Shown: positions 10,105-59,259 of the stretch, piece after piece
Layout: every line of letters begins with the position of its first letter
Numbering within the stretch: position 1 is the first letter of the stretch
From: a bacterium
Lineage (GTDB): Bacteria > Patescibacteriota > Minisyncoccia > UBA6257 > WO2-44-18
Length of the DNA: 59,259 nt
Assembly (NCBI GenBank): GCA_023244815.1
Contig: JAHFLQ010000004.1
Location: 1-59,259, forward strand
Direction of reading: 5' to 3'
Notes under the pieces: generated by a model
The model's database searches: none
Seen by the model: only the letters and a program-made list of their open reading frames with translations
What the model was told of the DNA's origin: nothing
Translations under genes and position numbers: made by a program

Positions 10105-11379
10105 GTGATTGTTCAAGTTCTCCACGGTATTTTAAATAGCATTTTTTCCGTGTTTGCCGTCAGCTGGTGGATTATTTTACCGCTAGCGATGGCTTTTGTT
10201 TTCTGGCAGTTTTGGACCTATTACATCTATGTTCAGTATCTTAGGTCTCAGAAATGGGTTTTATTGGAAATTAAAATTCCGGCTGTTATTGAAAAAACCC
10301 CCAAAGCGATGGAACAGGTTTTTGCCGCTGTTTACGGGACCTATTCTTTCGGGTTCACTTTTCGCCAAAAATATATTGAGGGACACGTGAGAGAAGACTG
10401 GCTGTCTTTTGAGCTGGTCGGTTTTGCCGGCGGCGTTCATTTTTACGTGCGCACTCCGGATTCCTACCGTAACCTGATTGAGGCGGCTATTTATTCGCAG
10501 TATCCGGACGCGGAGGTTCATGAAGCTCAGGATTACCAAGATTTATTTCCCAGGACCCTGCCCAATAAAGTTTATGATATTTTCGGTACCGACTATCATC
10601 TGGTCCGAGAAAATGCCTATCCAATCCGCACCTACGAATTTTTTGAATCTACCGTAGACGAACATCGTTTAGACCCAATTGCCGCTATTACCGAAGCGAT
10701 GTCCAAGTTGAAAAATGACGAAGCGATTTGGATCCAGATTTTCGTGCGGCCCGCCGGACCGGACTGGAAAGAAGAAGCCGAAGAAGTGCTGGACAAGCTT
10801 ATCGGCCGCAAGAAGCCGGCACCGCCGAAGGGCATGCTGAGCAATTTTGGCGAGTTTGCCAGGAATCTTTCGGTAGCCGCCATCGAACATCCGAGCTGGG
10901 AAGAAGCTGCGGTAAAGAAGGAAGAGAAAGAAAAAAATCTTTTGCTGGGCCTTACTCCGGGCGAGCGGGAAATTCTGGAAGCTATCGAAGAAAAAATGGG
11001 CAAGCTTGGGTTTGAAACAAACATCCGATTTGTTTATATAGACAGGCGGGATAGTTTTACCCGATCAAATATTGCCGCGGTAATGTCCACCTTCCATCAA
11101 TACAGCGCGCCGCATCTCAACGCTTTTCGTCCAAACGTGAGTACGCTAACCGTGGTACGCGGTAATTTGAAACTGGCGAAAGACCGCCGACTTTGGTACA
11201 AGAAGCGTCGGATTTGGGATGCTTACCGGAGAATGTACTGGCCTCGCAAGACCTCCATCTTAAACACCGAAGAATTAGCGACCATCTTTCACTTCCCAAG
11301 CATAGTCGTAGAGGCCCCATTACTTCGTCGTTTGGGCGCGAAAAAGGGCGAGCCGCCAGCTGGTTTGCCTGTGGAGTAA
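10105..11379 (+). CDS. conserved membrane protein, probable partner of the downstream coupling-protein-like ATPase
   Basis: N-terminal TM; LLEIKIP...AMEQVF, WLSFELVG, ELATIFHFP motifs resemble N-terminal modules of CPR VirD4-like proteins (recall, not searched). Confidence 0.65.
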   Translation: MIVQVLHGILNSIFSVFAVSWWIILPLAMAFVFWQFWTYYIYVQYLRSQKWVLLEIKIPAVIEKTPKAMEQVFAAVYGTYSFGFTFRQKYIEGHVREDWLSFELVGFAGGVHFYVRTPDSYRNLIEAAIYSQYPDAEVHEAQDYQDLFPRTLPNKVYDIFGTDYHLVRENAYPIRTYEFFESTVDEHRLDPIAAITEAMSKLKNDEAIWIQIFVRPAGPDWKEEAEEVLDKLIGRKKPAPPKGMLSNFGEFARNLSVAAIEHPSWEEAAVKKEEKEKNLLLGLTPGEREILEAIEEKMGKLGFETNIRFVYIDRRDSFTRSNIAAVMSTFHQYSAPHLNAFRPNVSTLTVVRGNLKLAKDRRLWYKKRRIWDAYRRMYWPRKTSILNTEELATIFHFPSIVVEAPLLRRLGAKKGEPPAGLPVE

Positions 11380-11607: not shown

Positions 11608-13269
11608 ATGGAAATTAATTTTTTTGGAGAAGTAAATTTTCGGGGCTCTACTAAAAAATTTGGCATTAAAACCGATGACCGGCGCCGGCATATGTATTGC
11701 ATTGGCAAAACCGGCATGGGTAAGACGACGCTACTGGAAAACATGGTAGTGAACGATATTCGCGCTGGCAATGGCGTGGGTATTGTGGATCCGCATGGCG
11801 ATTTCGCCGAAAAAATGCTGGAATTTGTACCCAAAGATCGCATTAAAGACGTGATCTATTTTAACCCCGCCGATATCGAATACCCGGTGGCTTTTAATCC
11901 GATCGAAAAAATTTCCGCCGGCTACCGCCACCTGGTGGCCTCCGGCTTAATGGGCGTATTCAAGAAAATTTGGCCAGATGTCTGGTCGGCTCGTATGGAA
12001 TATATCCTAAACAACTCGCTCCTGTCCCTATTGGAATCTCCAGACGCTACTTTGCTTGACGTAATGCGTTTGATGTCCGACAAGGATTACCGAAAGAAAA
12101 TTGTAGACAATCTTCAGGATCCGGTGATGAAGAATTTCTGGGTGAACGAGTTTGCTCGCTACGCGCAGAAATTTGAAACGGAAGCGACCGCCGCCATTCA
12201 AAATAAGATCGGCAAATTCGTCGCCAATCCTTTAGTGCGCCACATTTTGGGCCAGCCAACTTCCGCTTTGGACTTCCGCAAGTCTATGGATGATAAAAAG
12301 ATTATGATTTTCAACCTCTCCAAGGGCCGCATCGGCGAGGATAATTCCGCCCTGCTCGGTTCCATGATTATTACTAAGCTCCAGCTGGCGGCCATGTCGC
12401 GCGTGGATATCGTCAACGAAGCTGACCGCAAAGATTTTTTCCTGTACGTGGATGAATTCCAAAATTTCGCCACCGATTCCTTCGCCAACATTCTTTCGGA
12501 AGCCCGCAAATACCGCCTGTCGCTGATCCTTGCCCATCAGTATATCGGCCAACTGGTGCACGAGATGAATACGAAAGTTCGGGACGCGGTGTTCGGCAAT
12601 GTCGGTACAATGGTGGCTTTCCGCATCGGCGCGGAAGACGCCGAATTTCTGGAAAAAGAATTTGAGCCGGATTTTATGGCGACCGATCTGGTGAACATTC
12701 CCAAGGCTAATTTTTATATCAAACTGATGATTGACGGCGTATCTTCGCGGCCATTTTCCGGGCGGGGCATCGCGCCCGTCCAGCGTCCAGCTAGTGCATT
12801 TGTAAAAGAGATCGTCGAACATAGCCGCAAGACCTATGCTACTCCACTGAAGGCTGTAGAGGAGAAAATTGCGAGTAATTGGGCTATCGCGCCAGAAGAA
12901 GAACGACCAGAAAGGCCTCCGCGAATGAGTGACAGTATGGCGCCCCGTCGCCCAATGGGTAATTACCCACCCAGGCGGCCATCTGGCCCCCTTCAGAGCA
13001 GGCCCATGGATTTTGATACGACACGCCGATCGGAACGAGAATACCGGCCGCCAGCCAGGGAAGTTCGCCCTGAGCCCGCCGGACGTGAGCAGTCTGCTCC
13101 AAGGCCCGTCCCGACTATCTCGCTCAAAGATTTGAAACCGCGCGAGATGCCGCCACAAGCGCCAAGCGAAAAACCGAAAGAACCGGTTAAACCTCCGGCG
13201 CAGGCGGTTGACGTGGGTGAGCTGCGCAAAGCTTTGAAAGAATCACTGGACAAGAAGAACCCGCAGTAA
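11608..13269 (+). CDS. VirD4/TraD/HerA-like ATPase (type IV coupling protein-like)
   Basis: Walker A GKTGMGKT, Walker B LYVDEFQNF, LSEARKYRLSLILAHQ; Pro/Arg-rich C-terminal tail. Confidence 0.88.
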   Translation: MEINFFGEVNFRGSTKKFGIKTDDRRRHMYCIGKTGMGKTTLLENMVVNDIRAGNGVGIVDPHGDFAEKMLEFVPKDRIKDVIYFNPADIEYPVAFNPIEKISAGYRHLVASGLMGVFKKIWPDVWSARMEYILNNSLLSLLESPDATLLDVMRLMSDKDYRKKIVDNLQDPVMKNFWVNEFARYAQKFETEATAAIQNKIGKFVANPLVRHILGQPTSALDFRKSMDDKKIMIFNLSKGRIGEDNSALLGSMIITKLQLAAMSRVDIVNEADRKDFFLYVDEFQNFATDSFANILSEARKYRLSLILAHQYIGQLVHEMNTKVRDAVFGNVGTMVAFRIGAEDAEFLEKEFEPDFMATDLVNIPKANFYIKLMIDGVSSRPFSGRGIAPVQRPASAFVKEIVEHSRKTYATPLKAVEEKIASNWAIAPEEERPERPPRMSDSMAPRRPMGNYPPRRPSGPLQSRPMDFDTTRRSEREYRPPAREVRPEPAGREQSAPRPVPTISLKDLKPREMPPQAPSEKPKEPVKPPAQAVDVGELRKALKESLDKKNPQ

Positions 13270-13858: not shown

Positions 13859-13932
13859 GTTGTTGATTTTACATAATTGACCCGTTAAAATCAACTTTTG
13901 CTAAATCGGTTATTTTCTTGTATTCTATCGTC

Positions 13933-14991
13933 ATGCGAAAGTCGAAGGGAAGGGTTTTTGTTGCTATGTCTGGCGGGGTTGATTCCAGTGTCGCTGCAGC
14001 GCTCTTAAAAGAGCGCGGCTTTGACGTGGTTGGCGCGCACTTGAAGTGCTTTAACGTGGACGGATGCGCCGCGCAGGATGCCGAGGACGCCCGCCGTGCC
14101 GCCGAGCACTTAGGCATTCCTTTTTACACGTTTGATTTTGAAAAAGAATACAAAGACCAAGTGGTTCAATATATGATCGATGGCTACAAGAAAGGCATCA
14201 CGCCTAATCCGGACGTGATGTGCAACAAGGAAATTAAATTCGGGCTTTTTTATAAAAAAGCAATGGAAATGGGCGCGGATTTTGTAGCGACCGGGCATTA
14301 TGTCCGGTTGATGAAAAAATCCGGTAAACCAATTCTGGCTATCGCGCGGGATAGCAAGAAAGACCAGTCCTACTTTCTCTGGGCCATCAAGCCCGAACAG
14401 TTAGAGAAGTGTTTGTTCCCGATTGGAAATCTGAAAAAGCCGCAGGTAAGAAAGCTGGCCGTGAAATTTGGCTTACACAACGCCGCTAAAAAAGACTCCC
14501 AGGGCATTTGTTTCCTGGGACAGGTTTCACTGCCGGACTTTTTAAAAAAGTACATCAAGCCGAAAGTCGGCGCGATTGTAAATGAAGCGGGTGAAGTGAT
14601 TGGTGAACATAATGGCGCGCATTTTTATACCATAGGCCAACGGCACGGGTTGAACATCGGCGGATTTGAAAAGCCGCTTTATGTTGCTGATAAAGATATG
14701 AAGAAAAATATTGTTGTCGTCGCCGAAGGTGATGACGCTAAGGCGTTATACAAAAAAGAAGCTGACTTAACGTCTTTAAATATTTTTAATATTGAAATAT
14801 TTAAATCTTGCAAAACCATTCCGGTTTTGGCGCGAGTCCGCTACCGCCAGCCGGTTGCCAAAGCGACCTTTGTGAAAAATAAATTAGTATTCGCGAAGCC
14901 AATGAAGTTTGTCGCCGAAGGTCAGTCAGCGGTGTTTTATGACACGAAGGGCATAATGCTCGGTGGTGGTGTTATTGCCAAAGTGAAGTAG
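13933..14991 (+). CDS. mnmA: tRNA-specific 2-thiouridylase MnmA
   Basis: AMSGGVDSSV, PNPDVMCNKEIKF, ATGHY, KDQSYFL, DSQGICF. Confidence 0.97.
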   Translation: MRKSKGRVFVAMSGGVDSSVAAALLKERGFDVVGAHLKCFNVDGCAAQDAEDARRAAEHLGIPFYTFDFEKEYKDQVVQYMIDGYKKGITPNPDVMCNKEIKFGLFYKKAMEMGADFVATGHYVRLMKKSGKPILAIARDSKKDQSYFLWAIKPEQLEKCLFPIGNLKKPQVRKLAVKFGLHNAAKKDSQGICFLGQVSLPDFLKKYIKPKVGAIVNEAGEVIGEHNGAHFYTIGQRHGLNIGGFEKPLYVADKDMKKNIVVVAEGDDAKALYKKEADLTSLNIFNIEIFKSCKTIPVLARVRYRQPVAKATFVKNKLVFAKPMKFVAEGQSAVFYDTKGIMLGGGVIAKVK

Positions 14992-15031
14992 AAGGCGTAA
15001 GTTTGTGGTAGTTGTTTGAAAGGGGTGCAAT

Positions 15032-15946
15032 TTGACAGGATACATCGGCCTCGTGTTTTTCGCGGCACTTTCGTGGGTTGCGGCGATCTTTCTCTACAAG
15101 TATTGCCATGGTGTCTACGAAGGCCAAAAGAATACTTGGAAATTGAAATTTGTCGGCATTTTCATTCTTTCGTTTATGGTTAATATCCTGCTGGTGAAGA
15201 CCATGAGCGGGGTGACAGCAGGTCCCGGAGCTAAGCCGGTGCCTATCGCGTATGGGCTAAGTTATGGACAAATTTTGTTTATTGGAATTCTGGGAACGCT
15301 GCTGTTTCTCGGGTTTTCCGGAATGCTGGCTCAGGTCCTTCTTTATCTACTGAAGGGTCGCAAGCAAGCGTTGAGCGTGCTGCCATCCCTGATTCTCGGG
15401 CCGTTGCTGATTATGAAGATGCTCTACAATCCTACGATTGTCGGCAATATCCTTGTTTTTCTTGTGCTGCTAATTTCACTCAACTTTGCTACCCGTCTTA
15501 CTAAATCCGCGTTCATCTCGATTTTCATCGTGATTATATTGCTAGACATTTACCTCGTCTGGTGTACAAGCGTCACCGCGTCGGCCTTGCCATCCTCTAG
15601 AGCTGAGGTCGCGGATGAGTTGGACGCCGGCTGGTATATCGCCATGTTCCGGAGCAACTTCATGCAGCATTTCCCATTTCCGGTAGGATTTCGCTTTGCC
15701 GACCATCTGCTTGGCAATGGCGACATCTTTTTTATGGGAGTGACGGTAATGTATGCGATGCGCGTCTGGAGTATGCGCGCGGCGGTAACGGCGGGTGTCT
15801 TGATGACGCTACCGCTTCTGCTCCTGCCATTCGCGCACCTGGTTCTGAAAACACCGCCGATGGCCTGGCCTTACACGATCTTCATCGCTCCGGTCGCGCT
15901 CTGTATCGCTATCTTCGCTCCGAAAAATCTAAAACGAAACCAATAA
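15032..15946 (+). CDS. polytopic membrane protein, presenilin/signal-peptide-peptidase-like GxGD aspartyl protease
   Basis: About 9 TM segments; ILLDIYLVW (first Asp), LGNGDIFF (GxGD), PMAWP near the C-terminus (PAL-like). Confidence 0.7.
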   Translation: MTGYIGLVFFAALSWVAAIFLYKYCHGVYEGQKNTWKLKFVGIFILSFMVNILLVKTMSGVTAGPGAKPVPIAYGLSYGQILFIGILGTLLFLGFSGMLAQVLLYLLKGRKQALSVLPSLILGPLLIMKMLYNPTIVGNILVFLVLLISLNFATRLTKSAFISIFIVIILLDIYLVWCTSVTASALPSSRAEVADELDAGWYIAMFRSNFMQHFPFPVGFRFADHLLGNGDIFFMGVTVMYAMRVWSMRAAVTAGVLMTLPLLLLPFAHLVLKTPPMAWPYTIFIAPVALCIAIFAPKNLKRNQ

Positions 15947-15951
15947 AATAC

Positions 15952-15979
15952 AAACCCGTGGTTAAGCCACGGGTTTTTT
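15952..15979 (+). terminator. intrinsic terminator
   Basis: AAACCCGTGG/CCACGGGTTT stem plus T-tract. Confidence 0.85.
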
Positions 15980-16004
15980 GTTAAAATGCGCCCATTCATT
16001 TCAA

Positions 16005-17330
16005 ATGAGAATTCACGACATTTTCTTTTGGGCATCTGTGTTTTTTCTCGCCGGTGTGCTGATAGCTAGCGCTACCGGCAATATTTTAACCGCTGCCATA
16101 TTAATTTTATTGACCCTAGCGACTCTGCCTTTTCTATCATTGAAGTTTTTACCACTACCCCGCGGGGTAGTGGCGCTTGGTTTGGTTATGTTTCTGGGTG
16201 CCAGCTATTATTTCGCTTACGACTATTACACGCAGGATCGGCAGATCATTTTCGATAAGAAGGTTGAGTTCACGGGAATCGTTAGCGCGACGGAAAACGG
16301 GATCAGGGGACAGAAAGTAGTTGTAGATGACATCCAGCTTTCTGTGCCGCAGTATCCGGTCTATGAATATGGCGACCGGGTAAAAATCACGGGAAAAATT
16401 CAGCACGTACCGGATCAGTTAAAAAATTATTTCACGAAAGAAGGAATTTTCGGTTTGATGCTTCGGCCGGAAGTGGCGGTGCTCACTAAAAATCAGGGCT
16501 ATCTAATCAAGGCGCGGCTGCTCAAAATAAAAGATTTTTTTGAGGCGACTTTCCAAAAAGTTTTGCCATTTAACCAAGCGACATTTATGTCCGGGCTGAT
16601 CCTCGGAGATACCTCCATGTTCACCGATGATTTTAAAGAAGCAATGCGCTTGAGTGGCACCAGCCACCTGGTCGCGCTGTCCGGATTCAATATTTCTATA
16701 ATCGTAAAAACTATTTTGGGTATTTTAGGCACCTGGTGGGTAACGAAACGATTCAGATTTCCGATTGCGGTTTTATTTATAGTCAGCTTTGTAATCATGA
16801 CCGGAGCGCAGGCGTCGGTTGTGCGAGCGGCGATTATGGCCGGACTGGTATTGCTTGCCGACAAAACCGGCCGGGTTTTTTATTTCCGCAATGCCGTGGC
16901 CGCCGCGGCATTGGTGATGGTACTGATTAATCCGCTTATTTTAGTTTTTGACGTCGGTTTTCAACTATCCTTCGCGGCGCTATTGGGCATAGTTTATCTC
17001 CGGCCGTTTATTCAAAAGTGGCTGAATTTGAAAGACGAGCCGGGAATTTTCCAGTGGCGGGAGCATTTCCTGAATACCAGTTCCGCTCAGCTCGCCGTCC
17101 TGCCGTTGCTTCTTTACCAATTTGGCTATTTTTCACCAATAGGCATTATTTCCAACATTTTAATTTTGGAGTTTATACCGCTTACTATGGCGCTGGGCTT
17201 TTTTATCGGCTTTGCGGCAATTTTTTCCATGACACTTACTTGGATAATCAGTTGGCCCACCAGCGTGTTTCTCGGCTATGAACTTGGCGTGATTCACTGG
17301 TGCTCTAGGATAATAAACTATATCCTGTGA
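16005..17330 (+). CDS. comEC: ComEC/Rec2 competence protein, membrane (channel) part
   Basis: GTSHLVALSGFNI, ASVVRAAIMA, DVGFQLSFAA motifs; no MBL domain. Confidence 0.93.
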   Translation: MRIHDIFFWASVFFLAGVLIASATGNILTAAILILLTLATLPFLSLKFLPLPRGVVALGLVMFLGASYYFAYDYYTQDRQIIFDKKVEFTGIVSATENGIRGQKVVVDDIQLSVPQYPVYEYGDRVKITGKIQHVPDQLKNYFTKEGIFGLMLRPEVAVLTKNQGYLIKARLLKIKDFFEATFQKVLPFNQATFMSGLILGDTSMFTDDFKEAMRLSGTSHLVALSGFNISIIVKTILGILGTWWVTKRFRFPIAVLFIVSFVIMTGAQASVVRAAIMAGLVLLADKTGRVFYFRNAVAAAALVMVLINPLILVFDVGFQLSFAALLGIVYLRPFIQKWLNLKDEPGIFQWREHFLNTSSAQLAVLPLLLYQFGYFSPIGIISNILILEFIPLTMALGFFIGFAAIFSMTLTWIISWPTSVFLGYELGVIHWCSRIINYIL

Positions 17331-17375
17331 TATAACACTTAATGTCCGTTCGGCCAGTAAATGTTATAAAATCTA

Positions 17376-17927
17376 ATGATTAAAAGAAAATTTGGAATAG
17401 TAACTATCGCGCTTCTTAAACTAATCACCGAGCGGGGTAAGTTGCTTATCAATGAGATTTTAGCGAATCCAAGAAAGACACTTGGACAGAGTTTACGCGC
17501 TATAGCGGACGCCAAAGATTTCGACCAGCACTACGAAGCGCTAGAAAATCTGAAGGACTCAAATGTCCGCATGATAATTTCCCGACTTAAAAGTAGAGGC
17601 TTGATAGCTCGGTATGGTAAGCACTACATCCCTACTAAAACGGGAGAGTGGGTGATTAATAAATTAAAGTCAAAAGAAAAATTGGCATGGGATAAAAAAT
17701 GGAGGGTTGTATTTTTCGATATTCCGGAATCTAGGCGGGGTGATCGAAAGTGGCTAGTAGCAAACTTATTGAGCGAGGGATTTCGCTCTCTCCAAAAAAG
17801 CGTTTTTCTTGGCAAGAATCCATTAGATCAAGACTTAGCCGAGACATTAGTTAGAAAAAATCTTTATCGATTTGTCAGAATAATAACAATAGGTGAAATC
17901 GATGACGACAATATTTTAGAAATATAA
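17376..17927 (+). CDS. PaaX-like regulator (winged helix plus Cas2-like ferredoxin fold)
   Basis: NVRMIISRLKSRGLI (wHTH); WDKKWRVVFFDIPESRRGDR...GFRSLQKSVF (PaaX/Cas2-like). No CRISPR array or other cas genes in the window. Confidence 0.8.
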   Translation: MIKRKFGIVTIALLKLITERGKLLINEILANPRKTLGQSLRAIADAKDFDQHYEALENLKDSNVRMIISRLKSRGLIARYGKHYIPTKTGEWVINKLKSKEKLAWDKKWRVVFFDIPESRRGDRKWLVANLLSEGFRSLQKSVFLGKNPLDQDLAETLVRKNLYRFVRIITIGEIDDDNILEI

Positions 17928-17967
17928 CAGTTGCCAGCCGAACGGCCGATAAATGTTATAAATTATA

Positions 17968-18837
17968 ATGGAAACAAAAACTGATAAAAAATCAAATCAA
18001 CTTATCACGCCAGCCATTTTAATTTTAATTGCGGCGAATATTTTTATTTGGCGGTCGGTGGCTTTTAGCGCCGATTCCGGCAAGACGCAACTTTACTTTC
18101 TTAGCGTCGGGCAGGGGGACAGTGAGCTGGTGGTTTTGCCGGGCAACGTGAAAATTTTAATTGATGGCGGGCCGCCGAACGGCATGGTGCTGGACGAACT
18201 CGGTAAGATTCTGCCGCCGTTCGATCGTTACATCGATCTTGTGATTTTGAGCCATCCTCATCTGGATCATTATGGCGGGCTGATTGACGTGCTGAAAAGC
18301 TATCAGGTTGGCGCGATTATTGATAACGGCAATTCGGCTCCGATCAGCGCTTACGCGGATTTTGTGAACGCAATTAACAAAAACGGGGCGAAGCATTTGG
18401 TTTTGGAAGAAGGCGATGCGATTAAATATGGCGACGCGAGATTTGACGTGATTTCTCCCAATGCGAAAGATTTGGCGAGTTCGGTTGTCCACGATGGCTG
18501 TATCGTAATGATGTTTCGGGAAAAAGGTTTGCGCGCGCTTTATACCGGCGACATCGGTCGGGACACAGAAGACGAATTAATTCAGCGGTACAATCTTTCG
18601 GCGCAGATTTTGAAGGTTGGGCACCATGGCTCCAAGACCTCCAGTTCGCCGGAGTTTCTTCGGGCCGTTCACCCGCAATTTTCAGTTATTGAGGCTGGTT
18701 TACACAACACCTACGGCCATCCGACTAAACGGACGCTTGAGAATCTCGCTGATATCGGCGCGCAGATTTTCCGCACCGACCAGGGCGGTACGGTGAAATT
18801 TATTTTTGACGGCGGCAATCTTAAGGTTTTTAACTAA
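17968..18837 (+). CDS. metallo-beta-lactamase-fold protein (separate ComEC C-terminal domain)
   Basis: SVGQGDS, LIDGG, SHPHLDHYGG, TGDI, LKVGHHGSKTSS, NTYGHP, FRTDQGG. Confidence 0.92.
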   Translation: METKTDKKSNQLITPAILILIAANIFIWRSVAFSADSGKTQLYFLSVGQGDSELVVLPGNVKILIDGGPPNGMVLDELGKILPPFDRYIDLVILSHPHLDHYGGLIDVLKSYQVGAIIDNGNSAPISAYADFVNAINKNGAKHLVLEEGDAIKYGDARFDVISPNAKDLASSVVHDGCIVMMFREKGLRALYTGDIGRDTEDELIQRYNLSAQILKVGHHGSKTSSSPEFLRAVHPQFSVIEAGLHNTYGHPTKRTLENLADIGAQIFRTDQGGTVKFIFDGGNLKVFN

Positions 18838-55486: not shown

Positions 55487-56785
55487 ATGGTAACCAAAAC
55501 CGCCAAGAAAGAAGCGGATGTCAAAAAAAAGATTCAAAAAGAAGAGAGCCGGCCAGGGACAGCCAGACCCTCGGAGGGGGACGCGGTATCGAAAGAACTC
55601 ACAAAAGGAGGCGAAGAAATTTCTATTATTAAATTAGTGGACAATCTGGTGGAATCCGCCTTTCATTCTCGCGCTTCCGATATTCATATAGACCCGGCGG
55701 AAAAACAGATTTCCGTCCGATTCAGGATTGATGGCGTGCTTCACGATTTTTATACCTTTCCCAAAGAAATCCAGTCCGAAGTCATCAGCCGCGTTAAAGT
55801 TCTTTCCGGTTTGCGCACCGACGAGCACCAGGCCGCGCAAGACGGCCGCTTCCGTCTGACTTTCAGTGGTGTCAATGTGGACGTGCGGGTTTCCGTCGCG
55901 CCAACTTATTACGGTGAAAATACCGTCATGCGTTTGCTGGCTGATCAGGCGGAATCCTACACTCTCGAAACCCTCGGCTTTCAAGGGCGCGATCTGGACG
56001 TGGTAAAGAGAAACATTACAAAGCCCTACGGGATGCTGCTCGCTACCGGACCGACCGGCTCCGGCAAGACCACCACGCTTTACACGATTTTGAAAATGCT
56101 CAACACCAAAGAAGTTTCCATTATTACTATCGAAGATCCGGTGGAATACGCGATTGGAGGTATTGAACAGATTCAGGTGAACACGCGCACTGGACTCACT
56201 TTTGCTAGCGGGCTGCGTTCTATTTTGCGGCAAGACCCGAATATTGTAATGGTTGGTGAGATTCGCGACGAGGAAGCCGCCGGTATCGCGGTCAATGCCG
56301 CCTTGACCGGTCACCTTTTGCTCTCCACCCTTCATACTAATGACGCCGCGACGACTTTGCCGCGCCTGCTGGACATGGGCATCGAACCGTTTTTGATCGC
56401 CTCCACGGTGAATATCGCTATCGGCCAACGTTTGGTAAGAAAAATCTGCGACGGGTGTAAGACCAAAAAAGATATTACCGCCGATGAGCTGAAGAGCCTC
56501 GCTACGGTTTTGCCGGTTAAGGTGCTGGACGATTACAGAACTTTTTATTACGGCGCCGGTTGCGCCCAGTGCGACCATAGCGGCTATAAGGGACGCATCG
56601 GCATTCACGAAGTAATGGAAATTGACGACGAAGTGCGCCTAGCCCTGATGAAAGGCGCCGACGCGAGCGAAATTAAAAAAATTGCCATCAAAAATGGCAT
56701 GACAACGATGGTGGAAGACGGTTTCCGCAAGGCGATTGAGGGAGTTACTACTATTGAGGAAATTCTTCGTGTAATTCACGATTAG
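55487..56785 (+). CDS. pilB: type IV pilus/T2SS assembly ATPase PilB/GspE
   Basis: RASDIHIDP, RFRIDGVL, GPTGSGKTTTLY, TIEDPVEY, LRQDPNIVMVGEIRD, STLHTNDA, CxxC...CxxC. Confidence 0.93.
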   Translation: MVTKTAKKEADVKKKIQKEESRPGTARPSEGDAVSKELTKGGEEISIIKLVDNLVESAFHSRASDIHIDPAEKQISVRFRIDGVLHDFYTFPKEIQSEVISRVKVLSGLRTDEHQAAQDGRFRLTFSGVNVDVRVSVAPTYYGENTVMRLLADQAESYTLETLGFQGRDLDVVKRNITKPYGMLLATGPTGSGKTTTLYTILKMLNTKEVSIITIEDPVEYAIGGIEQIQVNTRTGLTFASGLRSILRQDPNIVMVGEIRDEEAAGIAVNAALTGHLLLSTLHTNDAATTLPRLLDMGIEPFLIASTVNIAIGQRLVRKICDGCKTKKDITADELKSLATVLPVKVLDDYRTFYYGAGCAQCDHSGYKGRIGIHEVMEIDDEVRLALMKGADASEIKKIAIKNGMTTMVEDGFRKAIEGVTTIEEILRVIHD

Positions 56786-56791
56786 CGACGT

Positions 56792-57883
56792 ATGGCAAAA
56801 CTACAGGTCAAAATAAATCTTTTCACCGGCCTGTTTTTCCGGGTGCCGACTCAAGACCAAATTTTATTTGCGCGCCATCTGGCGGTGATGTCAAAAGCCG
56901 GTCTGCCTCTTATAGAAAGTCTCAAGTTGATCCAGAAAGAAACCAAATCCAGGGCCATGCTGAAGATTCTCGATCAAGTTATTAAAGACGTGAGCAACGG
57001 TCAGTTTTTGTCGGCCAGCTTGGATCGTTACAAAGAAATTTTCGGCAGCTTATTTATTAACATTATCCGAGTCGGCGAATCAGCCGGAATTTTATCGGAA
57101 AACCTGAATTATCTGGCTGATGAACTTAAGAAAAAACGGGAGCTTAAGAAAAAAGTCATTGGCGCGCTTATTTATCCGGCGATAATTTTCGTTGCCACTT
57201 TCGGTATCACCGGATTACTGACGGTCTTTATCTTTCCCAAAATACTGCCAGTTTTCAAGAGCTTAAATATTACATTGCCTCTCACCACCCGGATTTTGAT
57301 CTGGTTCAGTAATGCGCTCACTGACTACGGCCCATATGTAATTGCCGCTTTTGGCGTGCTTATAATCAGTCTTTGGTTGTTGGCCCAGCTTAAGAAAATC
57401 CGCTATTTCTTACACTTTTTCCTCCTGAAACTTCCGGTCTTTGGCAATATCGCTCGCGATGTTAATCTTGCCAATTTTTGCCGTACACTTGGTTTGACTA
57501 TCAAAAGTGGCGTGAAAATTGTGGAGGCGCTGGAGATTACCTCCGAATCTCTTTCAAACTTTGTTTATAAAAAGAATATTCTAGCGATAGCGGAAAACGT
57601 AAAAAAAGGAGAAGCCATTGCACAATACCTGATTAAACGGCACAAGCTTTTTCCGGTAGTAGTTTCCCAGATGGTTTCGGTGGGGGAAACGGCCGGAAAT
57701 TTGAGCGAGACCTTGCTCTACCTTTCCGAATTTTATGAAAGCGAGGTTAATGAAGTTACTAAAAACCTTTCCAACATCCTTGAACCGATTTTGATGCTGG
57801 TGATGGGAATAGTAGTAGGCTTTGTGGCAATTTCGATTATTACCCCCATTTATGAAGTCAGTCAAAACATTTCTACTCGCTAA
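56792..57883 (+). CDS. pilC: type IV pilus/T2SS inner membrane platform protein PilC/GspF
   Basis: FARHLAVMSKAGLPL, GESAGIL, ALIYPAII, VGETAGNL, LEPILM. Confidence 0.93.
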   Translation: MAKLQVKINLFTGLFFRVPTQDQILFARHLAVMSKAGLPLIESLKLIQKETKSRAMLKILDQVIKDVSNGQFLSASLDRYKEIFGSLFINIIRVGESAGILSENLNYLADELKKKRELKKKVIGALIYPAIIFVATFGITGLLTVFIFPKILPVFKSLNITLPLTTRILIWFSNALTDYGPYVIAAFGVLIISLWLLAQLKKIRYFLHFFLLKLPVFGNIARDVNLANFCRTLGLTIKSGVKIVEALEITSESLSNFVYKKNILAIAENVKKGEAIAQYLIKRHKLFPVVVSQMVSVGETAGNLSETLLYLSEFYESEVNEVTKNLSNILEPILMLVMGIVVGFVAISIITPIYEVSQNISTR

Positions 57884-57887
57884 AATA

Positions 57888-58373
57888 ATGCGCGGATTTA
57901 TCCCGTCACCTTTTCAAGAGAATTGCAGGCTGCAAAGCAGCCCTCGGAAAGGTGCGGGATTTACGGTGTTCGAGTTACTGATAGTGATGGGTATTTTCGC
58001 GCTGATTATCGCGGTCGCGACCCCCGTGGGCATTACTTTTTACCTCAGCTATCAATTCGATTCCGAGTCTAATCTTTTAACCGCCCTTCTCCGGCACGCC
58101 AGGAATTTGTCTATGGTTAATTATAGCGAATCGGATCACGGCCTGCACGTGCTTAGCGACAAGTATGTAGTTTTCGAGGGAGCGAGCTACGCCACCCGCA
58201 TTCAGGCAAATGACAAAAAATTTCCCAGAGATACCGTTATTACGTTGACGGGTCCAACGGAATTAGTTTTTGCCGCTCTTTCCGGTCAAGCCGCATCCAG
58301 CACATTCAGTTTTTCCGGTAGTAATAAAAGTCGGGATATTTTTGTAAATCCTGAAGGGCTGGTTTATGAATAA
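57888..58373 (+). CDS. prepilin-type protein (FimT/GspH-like minor pilin)
   Basis: G|FTVFELLIVMGIFALII class III signal; LRHARNLSM. Confidence 0.88.
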   Translation: MRGFIPSPFQENCRLQSSPRKGAGFTVFELLIVMGIFALIIAVATPVGITFYLSYQFDSESNLLTALLRHARNLSMVNYSESDHGLHVLSDKYVVFEGASYATRIQANDKKFPRDTVITLTGPTELVFAALSGQAASSTFSFSGSNKSRDIFVNPEGLVYE

Positions 58374-59259
58374 ATTTTCAACCAAGGAATCGGGCCAGAG
58401 CGTTTTTGAGGTATTGATCGCCATCGGAATATTCGCGATTTCCGCAACGGCGGCGTTTCAGATATTCTTCGGCGGCCAGAAACTTTCTATCGACAGCGCG
58501 AACAGCAATTTGGCCAATGATTACGGTCGCGAGGCAGTAGAGGCAATCCGCAATATCCGCGCCCGCAACTGGAGCGAGCTGACGGATGGCGCTCACGGAC
58601 TGGTTTTTAAAAATAATGAATGGATGTTCGGTTCTTCCAGTGTCAGTGAGTCGCAAGATATTTTTACCCGCACCGTTACTGTTGGCACCGTGGACGCCAA
58701 CACCAAGATCGCCACCACCACCATTACCTGGCAGTCCGGCGACAACCGAATTCAGACGCAGGAGATTGTGGAGAAAATTACCAATTGGGAAAGCTATAGC
58801 CAGAGTAGCTGTAAGAATGAGCCGTTGACCGGTAATTGGGCCGCTCCGGTATTGCTCGGTTCGGGCGATATCGGCTCCGGCAATTCCGGAACGGATGTGG
58901 TGGTTCGGTTACCTTACGCCTTTGTGAGTGGTACCGCTTCGACCGCTTCCAAGCCGGACATTTTTGTTTTTGATGTTTCGAATCCCGCTCTTCCGTTATT
59001 AGTTCAATCCTTAAATATTGGCGCCAATGGCATCAGCTCGCTTTATATAAGCGGAAATTACCTATACGCGGCCTCGCCAAACGACAGCAAGGAGTTGATT
59101 GTTTTTGATATCACGAATCCGACTAGCCTGACTGAAATCGGGTCATACAATCTGTCCGGGTCAGCCGACGCCTTATCGGTTATTGTTTTCGGCAATACCG
59201 CCGCGGTTGGGAGGACCGATGGCGCCACCAATGAAATTGCCTTTTTGAATATTTCCACT
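58366..59259 (+). CDS. prepilin-type protein with C-terminal LVIVD-type beta-propeller repeats (runs off the window end)
   Basis: Translated by hand: MNKFSTKESG|QSVFEVLIAIGIF...; FVFDVSNP, YISGNYLYAA, IVFDITNP; no stop before 59259, so it is absent from the track. Confidence 0.85.
   Translation, partial: MNKFSTKESGQSVFEVLIAIGIFAISATAAFQIFFGGQKLSIDSANSNLANDYGREAVEAIRNIRARNWSELTDGAHGLVFKNNEWMFGSSSVSESQDIFTRTVTVGTVDANTKIATTTITWQSGDNRIQTQEIVEKITNWESYSQSSCKNEPLTGNWAAPVLLGSGDIGSGNSGTDVVVRLPYAFVSGTASTASKPDIFVFDVSNPALPLLVQSLNIGANGISSLYISGNYLYAASPNDSKELIVFDITNPTSLTEIGSYNLSGSADALSVIVFGNTAAVGRTDGATNEIAFLNIST

Follow-up and report, generated by a model that had tools for sequence, protein, structure and literature searches.

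A small Patescibacteria protein family with a predicted presenilin/signal peptide peptidase fold, encoded in a variable slot between mnmA and comEC

Introduction

Do bacteria encode intramembrane proteases of the presenilin/signal peptide peptidase (SPP) kind? This question is raised by an open reading frame (ORF) on contig JAHFLQ010000004.1 (assembly GCA_023244815.1) of an ultra-small groundwater bacterium belonging to the candidate phyla radiation (CPR, Patescibacteria). The ORF encodes a strongly hydrophobic product of 304 amino acids in which two aspartate motifs and a proline motif follow one another as they do in presenilin. The window, by which we mean the whole stretch of 59,259 nucleotides that was analysed, had first been read from its letters and the list of its ORFs. 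That reading, referred to here as the original prediction, proposed a rare bacterial protease of the A22 kind next to the competence gene comEC, possibly acquired from archaea.

GxGD enzymes of the presenilin/SPP type have been treated as eukaryotic and archaeal, bacteria being credited with A24 prepilin peptidases only (PMC2947513, PMC4343526, PMC9263693), and we found no paper linking presenilin homologues to Patescibacteria. The existence of such a fold in a bacterial family would broaden the known range of the class and supply a small stand-alone enzyme for mechanistic work, and one would then ask which proteins it cuts in an organism whose genome is very reduced. Its value is tempered by the nature of the evidence, all of which is computational, and by the dispensability of the gene among close relatives. 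We propose here that the window protein is an active GxGD intramembrane protease with the predicted fold of presenilin and SPP, a reading to which we give a probability of about 0.65.

Predicted fold of the window protein

Template-free AlphaFold2 modelling of the window protein from a 16-sequence alignment (model 1) gave a mean predicted local distance difference test score (pLDDT) of 85.5 and a predicted template modelling score (pTM) of 0.85. Model 1 consists of nine long helices (residues 2-32, 38-59, 78-106, 112-132, 135-155, which is kinked, 158-184, 229-245, 248-272 and 282-294), in agreement with the roughly nine transmembrane (TM) segments that had been counted on the sequence. A second AlphaFold2 model was made for a family member 29% identical to the window protein (model 2, pLDDT 82.8), and the pTM across the two models was 0.80-0.85. 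In both, a beta-hairpin was assigned directly before the GxGD motif, preceded by a conserved HFPFPxGF stretch in which P215 and P217 are invariant.

Comparison of model 1 with the PDB using Foldseek returned 17 best matches that were all presenilin-1/2, the archaeal presenilin/SPP homologue PSH (4hyg, 4hyc, 4y6k) or human SPPL2a (9k92). The best 16 had a probability of 1.00 and query TM-scores of 0.51-0.65, and the matches after the top 17 fell to a probability of at most 0.10 and a query TM-score of at most 0.20. The best E-value was that of presenilin 6lr4_B (7e-4, TM-score 0.63). With model 2 the order was SPPL2a 9k93 (E 7.5e-4) and 9k92, then presenilin-1 and PSH, with the same sharp drop afterwards. 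Normalised on the target, PSH scored highest with both models (0.72 for model 1 and 0.69 for model 2). The matches of probability 1.00 spanned the full length of either model (294-337 alignment columns), no other fold exceeded a probability of 0.23, and the 50 best matches listed for each model included no A24 structure. Both predicted models have the nine-TM presenilin fold that marks A22 (TM-scores of 0.5-0.72). A best structural match to an A24 enzyme or to a non-protease had been named as the outcome that would overturn the original prediction; Foldseek gave neither, and Peptidase_A24 was likewise without a Pfam match. At the level of fold and motifs, the layout therefore appears to be A22-like rather than A24-like, the matches being to presenilin, PSH and SPPL2a only.

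Conserved motifs of the putative active site

Conservation was analysed in 21 full-length members, which are 26-44% identical to the query. Invariant in all 21 were N139, D172, V176, W177, S208, P215, P217, G228, G230 and D231, as well as A251, P261, P280, Y281-I285 (YTIFI) and P287. Conservation peaked in TM6-TM9 and in the second half of the TM6-TM7 loop, and was minimal in TM2-TM4. The motifs LLD-IYLVW, LGNGDIFF and PMAWP do follow one another in the order first reported, at L170-L-D172-I-Y-L-V-W177, L227-G-N-G-D231-I-F-F234 and P276-M-A-W-P280. D172 is located within helix 158-184 of model 1 and GxGD at the N-terminal end of helix 229-245, while the family motif before and in TM9 reads (P)-x-A-W-P-Y-T-I-F-I-A-P. 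The motif match goes beyond chance, since D172, G228, G230, D231, P280 and YTIFI-P are kept without exception among homologues this distant from the query.

Profile alignment with hhalign placed these residues on those of the known enzymes. Against a vertebrate SPP profile the alignment was co-linear over 139 columns and paired NNIF with NNLF, D172 (LLDIYLVW) with D219 (IYDVFWVF), D231 with D265, and A278-W279 with A-L of PAL; this SPP profile was low in diversity, being made of vertebrate HM13 only. Against presenilin-1, D231 was paired with D385 and A-W-P280 with A-L-P436 of PALP. The invariant G228-x-G230-D231 is thus aligned with the GLGD of both presenilin-1 and SPP. The presenilin-1 query was verified against the PDB (1049 bits, full length), and the HM13 query was 100% identical to a Pongo isoform.

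Predicted membrane orientation and substrates

Lysine and arginine residues (K+R) were counted on the two sides of the predicted membrane protein in 16 sequences. They amount to 160 of 705 residues (0.23 per residue) on the side that comprises loops 1-2, 3-4, 5-6 and 7-8 and the C-terminal tail, versus 60 of 1141 (0.05) on the side of the N-terminus and the loops after TM2, TM4, TM6 and TM8. On account of this bias, the positive-inside rule predicts an N-terminus and a TM6-TM7 loop outside the cell and a cytoplasmic C-terminus (N-out/C-in), which is the orientation of SPP (A22B) and not that of presenilin (A22A).

SPP cuts type II (N-in) helices, and presenilin, whose orientation is opposite, cuts type I proteins (PMC2947513). 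From an SPP-type orientation it follows that helices spanning the membrane N-in/C-out would be the expected substrates. The commonest helices of this kind in bacteria would be short N-in anchors and the signal peptides that signal peptidase has cut off and left in the membrane, and by analogy with SPP we favour a clearing or releasing role. In the mechanism that we propose, the catalytic pair inside the membrane would consist of D172 (TM6) and D231 (start of TM7), and the substrate cleft would be shaped by the hairpin that precedes GNGD together with the A-W-P turn ahead of TM9, as by their equivalents in presenilin and SPP. The superposition of both models, over their full length, on active presenilin and SPPL2a structures is indirect evidence that the two Asp would face each other in a cavity within the membrane. 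The enzyme, being N-out/C-in, would cut N-in/C-out helices, its substrates would be spent signal peptides and short N-in anchors, and its gene would be an accessory one, transcribed with mnmA in a variable slot of an efp-mnmA-comEC-metallo-beta-lactamase (MBL) block and not dedicated to comEC.

A bolder proposal would be that of a working bacterial SPP-type enzyme in one genome-reduced CPR clade, which clears signal peptides or releases N-in anchored surface proteins and which replaces proteases of the SppA and RseP types or works beside them. In this complete form we hold it to be unlikely. If true, it would provide a minimal, partner-free bacterial model of presenilin/SPP catalysis, and the class would not be confined to eukaryotes and archaea.

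Comparison with known intramembrane proteases

One close likeness is to SPP and the SPPLs (MEROPS A22B, PF04258; HM13, SPPL2a 9k92/9k93), which were the top match of model 2 and among the top matches of model 1. The window protein shares with them the nine-TM fold, D-[IV]-[FY]-x-V-[FW] in TM6, GxGD at the start of TM7, the A-[WL] turn before TM9 and, about 32 residues ahead of the first Asp, NN[IL]F in TM5. Its predicted N-out/C-in orientation is also that of SPP (PMC2947513), and no partner subunits are encoded near its gene. It differs in its motifs (LD for YD, x-A-W-P for P-A-L), in lacking significant sequence similarity, in being bacterial (CPR) and not eukaryotic, and in being much smaller than SPPL2a. 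PSH/MCMJR1 (PF06550; 4hyc, 4hyg, 4y6k) resembles it as a prokaryotic, stand-alone protein of about 300 amino acids with nine TM helices, but no PF06550 match was obtained and the LD and AWP motifs of the window protein deviate. With presenilin-1/2 (gamma-secretase; A22A, PF01080) the points in common are LGNGDIFF, which is similar to LGLGDFIFY, A-W-P, which is similar to A-L-P, and a beta-strand directly before GxGD. Unlike presenilin, the window protein is predicted in the opposite orientation and has neither the long cytosolic loop, nor the conserved first Pro of PALP, nor any sign of partner subunits.

Active protease or another kind of protein

Several observations weigh against an active protease of this fold. 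The hhalign matches were non-significant (E 0.04-0.14, probability about 1%), and Pfam, PDB sequence and profile searches gave no significant similarity to a presenilin, SPP or PSH profile or structure. The case for the fold is made by predicted structures; the alignment behind them is shallow (16 sequences), and presenilin structures were part of the network's training. The motifs are not canonical either. In the first, which had been likened to YD, the Asp is invariant (D172) and the Tyr is absent, the preceding residue being Leu in most members, including the window protein, and Ala or Met in a few. In the last, likened to PAL, A278-W279-P280 do pair with A-L-P of PALP; at the site of the canonical first Pro, which is obligatory in presenilin-1, the residue varies and is Met in the window protein. 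Finally, the gene is the fastest-evolving one of its block, with 28-45% identity to its relatives (ComEC 47-60%, MBL protein 45-55%, MnmA 64-79% and EF-P 66-94%), and its repeated loss (see below) implies a role that is probably dispensable among close relatives.

The weak sequence scores are normal between branches of this superfamily, since human SPP itself matched presenilin-2 by phmmer at just E 0.08. PSH was not reached by phmmer of presenilin-1 or SPP against the PDB, nor by the family profile. The gene is under purifying selection and thus functional: the ratio of nonsynonymous (dN) to synonymous (dS) substitution rates was 0.23 in the closest pair of loci (L006/L007), versus 0.11 for comEC.

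These two loci (L006 160-1158 and L007 1145-2143) are variant copies on two contigs of one metagenome-assembled genome (MAG). The dS of the presenilin-fold gene between them was 0.80, about double that of the adjacent comEC (0.39), and its dN was also higher, which hints at recombination or at a separate history of the gene between strains.

The invariance of both Asp and of both GxGD glycines at 26-44% identity to the query is the pattern of a retained active site, and in PSH the Asp of YD and that of GxGD are both needed, their mutation abolishing activity (PMC2947513). This argues against the alternative that survives best, itself unlikely, namely a presenilin fold devoid of proteolysis in a pseudo-enzyme, a scaffold or a cation-leak channel. 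Such a protein would account for the missing Tyr of YD and first Pro of PAL, for the fast evolution and for the repeated loss of the gene, and it is favoured by a passage of PMC7997004, citing Kuo et al. 2015, in which presenilin-like GxGD proteins are reported to conduct ions.

Somewhat less probable again is an over-reading, in which the protein is polytopic but unrelated, for example a transporter or a lipid enzyme, and carries the motifs by chance, AlphaFold having been drawn to a known fold. In favour of such an error, no sequence-based comparison reached significance and the alignment has 16 rows, but two models of different targets (pLDDT 83-86, pTM 0.80-0.85) gave full-length matches to A22 only, and the invariant residues sit on the functional positions of that family, on the right helices and in the right order. 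The reading as an active protease of presenilin/SPP fold remains the preferred one.

A small family of Patescibacteria

No match to the window protein was found in Pfam (E up to 10), among PDB sequences (phmmer), in PHROGs or with PADLOC, and its single NCBIfam match (E 7.2) was unrelated. A profile of 16 members had no relevant match in the PDB by hmmsearch, and none of these members matched A22 or any other family of clan AD in Pfam. A full phmmer pass through 1.84 billion cluster representatives recovered 18 proteins, which are the family itself and all belong to Patescibacteria/CPR. Seventeen relatives were obtained by a word-indexed search, none of them with a Pfam domain or a name, and searching again with the profile of the 21-sequence alignment gave no further ones. 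Among 185,579 species, each represented by one genome, five loci in four MAGs carried the gene; all are Patescibacteria/CPR, and the records of these loci are titled 'uncultured Candidatus Saccharibacteria bacterium'. The sequencing runs containing the stretch were of groundwater metagenome DNA only. These counts agree with the rarity that had been supposed for this protein. On the strength of the models, the product of the presenilin-fold gene would belong to a small, previously unannotated and sequence-isolated Patescibacteria family of a known kind of enzyme.

An archaeal origin, which had been suggested, finds no support, as phmmer at this depth gave neither archaeal nor other relatives outside the family and the composition of the gene is not anomalous. 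Its GC content is 0.50 and that of its third codon positions (GC3) 0.61, close to the neighbouring genes, and the window has 0.48. Recent horizontal transfer was rejected for want of a compositional signal, and a transfer, if there was one, would be old.

Start and transcription of the presenilin-fold gene

The 304-amino-acid ORF is the first-start ORF of its frame, from TTG (15032-15034) to TAA (15944-15946). Public calls are shorter: 256 amino acids from a later ATG (Logan/ENA), which removes all of TM1 and part of TM2, and 297 amino acids (NCBI, P0148), which removes the first seven residues only. We consider the TTG form to be the better call because homologues (286-332 amino acids) align from their first residues, W15 and Y21 of TM1 are nearly invariant and a Shine-Dalgarno sequence is present. 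Direct reading and a terminator scan bore out the TTG start, the AAAGGGG and the terminator of the original prediction (Table 1). The hairpin is missing from L006 and L007, in which the stop codon abuts the ATG of comEC.

The gene had also been described as a cassette of its own, which does not hold: a promoter scan found no promoter-like site in the 40-bp spacer that separates it from mnmA, for which reason co-transcription with mnmA is the more probable. Probably one transcript carries mnmA first and the presenilin-fold gene second, and it would terminate at the hairpin. The weak match ahead of mnmA is the sole candidate promoter for this transcript, and a tentative one, the count of promoter-like sites in the window not exceeding the shuffled expectation.

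Table 1. Features of the mnmA-comEC region of the window, with the evidence for each. Residue numbers refer to the 304-amino-acid form.
Feature	Position	Strand	Evidence
Weak sigma-70-like promoter match ahead of mnmA	13863-13891	+	9/12 consensus positions; tentative
mnmA, tRNA 2-thiouridylase, upstream neighbour	13918-14991	+	Pfam tRNA_Me_trans, E 4e-75
Shine-Dalgarno-like AAAGGGG	15019-15025	+	6 nt ahead of TTG; read from the sequence
Coding sequence of the predicted nine-TM presenilin/SPP-fold protein, 304 aa, stop included	15032-15946	+	ORF, homologues, model
G138-N139-I140-L141, TM5 motif (family consensus NNIF, N139 invariant)	15443-15454	+	Conservation; hhalign to SPP ANNLF, weak statistics
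GAC codon of D172, predicted first catalytic Asp, mid TM6	15545-15547	+	Invariant 21/21; aligned with human SPP D219
Predicted beta-hairpin, residues 219-228, directly before GxGD	15686-15715	+	DSSP, both models
G228-N-G230-D231, GxGD, predicted second catalytic Asp, start of TM7	15713-15724	+	Invariant G228, G230, D231
A278-W279-P280, putative counterpart of A-L-P in presenilin PALP, TM8-TM9 junction	15863-15871	+	hhalign, conservation
Terminator-like hairpin and T-run between the presenilin-fold gene and comEC	15952-15976	+	Terminator scan: 11 pairs, 6 GC; 6 bases past the stop
comEC, membrane-channel part (DUF4131 + Competence), downstream neighbour	16005-17330	+	Pfam Competence, E 2e-47

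The mnmA-comEC junction

The position next to comEC, given in the original prediction, was verified by the Competence domain of the downstream gene (E 2e-47). The ATG at 16005 suits the N-termini of ComEC homologues better than the TTG at 15978. Upstream, mnmA was present in the related loci whose flank covers it (L001, L002, L005, L007, L008 and L010). The complete order mnmA, presenilin-fold gene, comEC and MBL gene was seen in L001, L002, L005, L008 and L010, and L006, L007, L011, L013 and L020 show parts of it within their shorter flanks. The family member in L009 sits elsewhere, between secD and thyX.

The content of the junction was analysed in 80 metagenomic comEC loci (40-57% identity), three of which, two of them distinct, have the presenilin-fold gene. 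In the 51 loci with an upstream mnmA on the same strand, mnmA and comEC abut in 20, enclose the presenilin-fold gene in three and enclose other content in 28. This content includes P-loop proteins similar to corrinoid adenosyltransferases of the CobO type and proteins similar to the PduO type (both judged by eye from N-terminal motifs), SPFH-like and histidine-kinase-like proteins and, in L019, a Pro/Ala-rich single-TM membrane protein. The block efp-mnmA-comEC-MBL is widely conserved in these CPR genomes, often without the presenilin-fold gene, and the junction (window 14992-16004) behaves as an insertion slot.

In a ComEC tree of 71 loci, the nine carriers of the gene all fell in one clade of 19 (Shimodaira-Hasegawa-like approximate likelihood ratio test, SH-aLRT, 98), interleaved with eight non-carriers, and outside this clade all 39 judged loci were non-carriers. 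At least two changes are needed on this tree, and the most parsimonious reconstruction has six. In the simplest history, the gene would have entered the variable slot of this conserved block once and then have been lost from it repeatedly. It follows from such a history that the gene is an accessory one, which lends no support to a functional link with ComEC, and from the repeated loss that its role would be dispensable.

The slot comparison and the tree reduce the link to comEC implied by the original prediction to one of position. There is consequently but a slight chance that the protein serves the DNA-uptake channel ComEC as a partner of its own, for instance as a protease that matures ComEC or other competence proteins or controls their quality. 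comEC is directly downstream in the window and in 9 of 10 distinct related contexts, and in L006 and L007 the two genes abut, but the gene is accompanied just as regularly by mnmA, and mnmA is unconnected with DNA uptake. The block is common without the gene, its slot being empty or holding unrelated genes, and the gene is absent next to close ComEC relatives. The L009 copy lies beside secD and thyX, and in the window a hairpin separates the gene from comEC. An accessory intramembrane protease, placed in this slot by its history, is the reading that we retain.

In every locus examined, ComEC itself is split (window 15978-18837), a DUF4131 + Competence gene being separate from a metallo-beta-lactamase gene. 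The two parts sometimes overlap and sometimes hold a gene between them. In the window this gene (17376-17927) is PaaX_M/Cas2-like (Pfam E 2e-14) and has a GC content of 0.38, versus 0.46-0.50 for its neighbours. L019 has a homologue at the corresponding position (41% identity) and L038 a weaker one past the MBL gene; this site between the two ComEC parts looks like a second variable slot.

Pilus genes and other features of the window

Prepilin peptidases of family A24 are the usual GxGD aspartyl membrane proteases of bacteria and archaea, and certain bacteria have them in association with competence genes. Their active site is at the cytoplasmic face, where prepilin leaders are cut. A24 and FlaK (PF01478), which belong to the same Pfam clan as A22, differ from the window protein in the number of helices and in the placement of the Asp residues, and the window family has no A24 match in sequence or fold. 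A pilus cluster runs from window positions 55487-59259 into L092 (11097-14471) and encodes PilB (T2SSE), PilC (T2SSF) and five pilin-like proteins, one with LVIVD repeats and one with an N_methyl motif; no prepilin peptidase gene was found inside the cluster or in the next 10 kb. The GxGD motif, the adjoining competence gene and these PilB, PilC and five pilin genes lacking an A24 gene within 10 kb might suggest a divergent type IV prepilin peptidase (PilD/ComC-like) serving a pilus or a competence pseudopilus, which is scarcely credible given that 16 members gave no Peptidase_A24 match at E up to 10, that the fold matches are exclusively A22, with nine TM helices and the Asp in TM6 and TM7, and that the active site is predicted nearer the outer face of the membrane, A24 enzymes cutting at the cytoplasmic one. 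A role in replacement of PilD was rejected because of the fold and of the side on which the active site is predicted.

Upstream of the block, window positions 10105-11379 and 11608-13269 encode, in this order, a protein of 424 amino acids for which no Pfam match was found and a coupling ATPase of VirD4/TrwB-like type whose long tail is rich in Pro, Arg and Glu. L005 (77% identity) and L008 (66%) have the ATPase as well, likewise ahead of efp.

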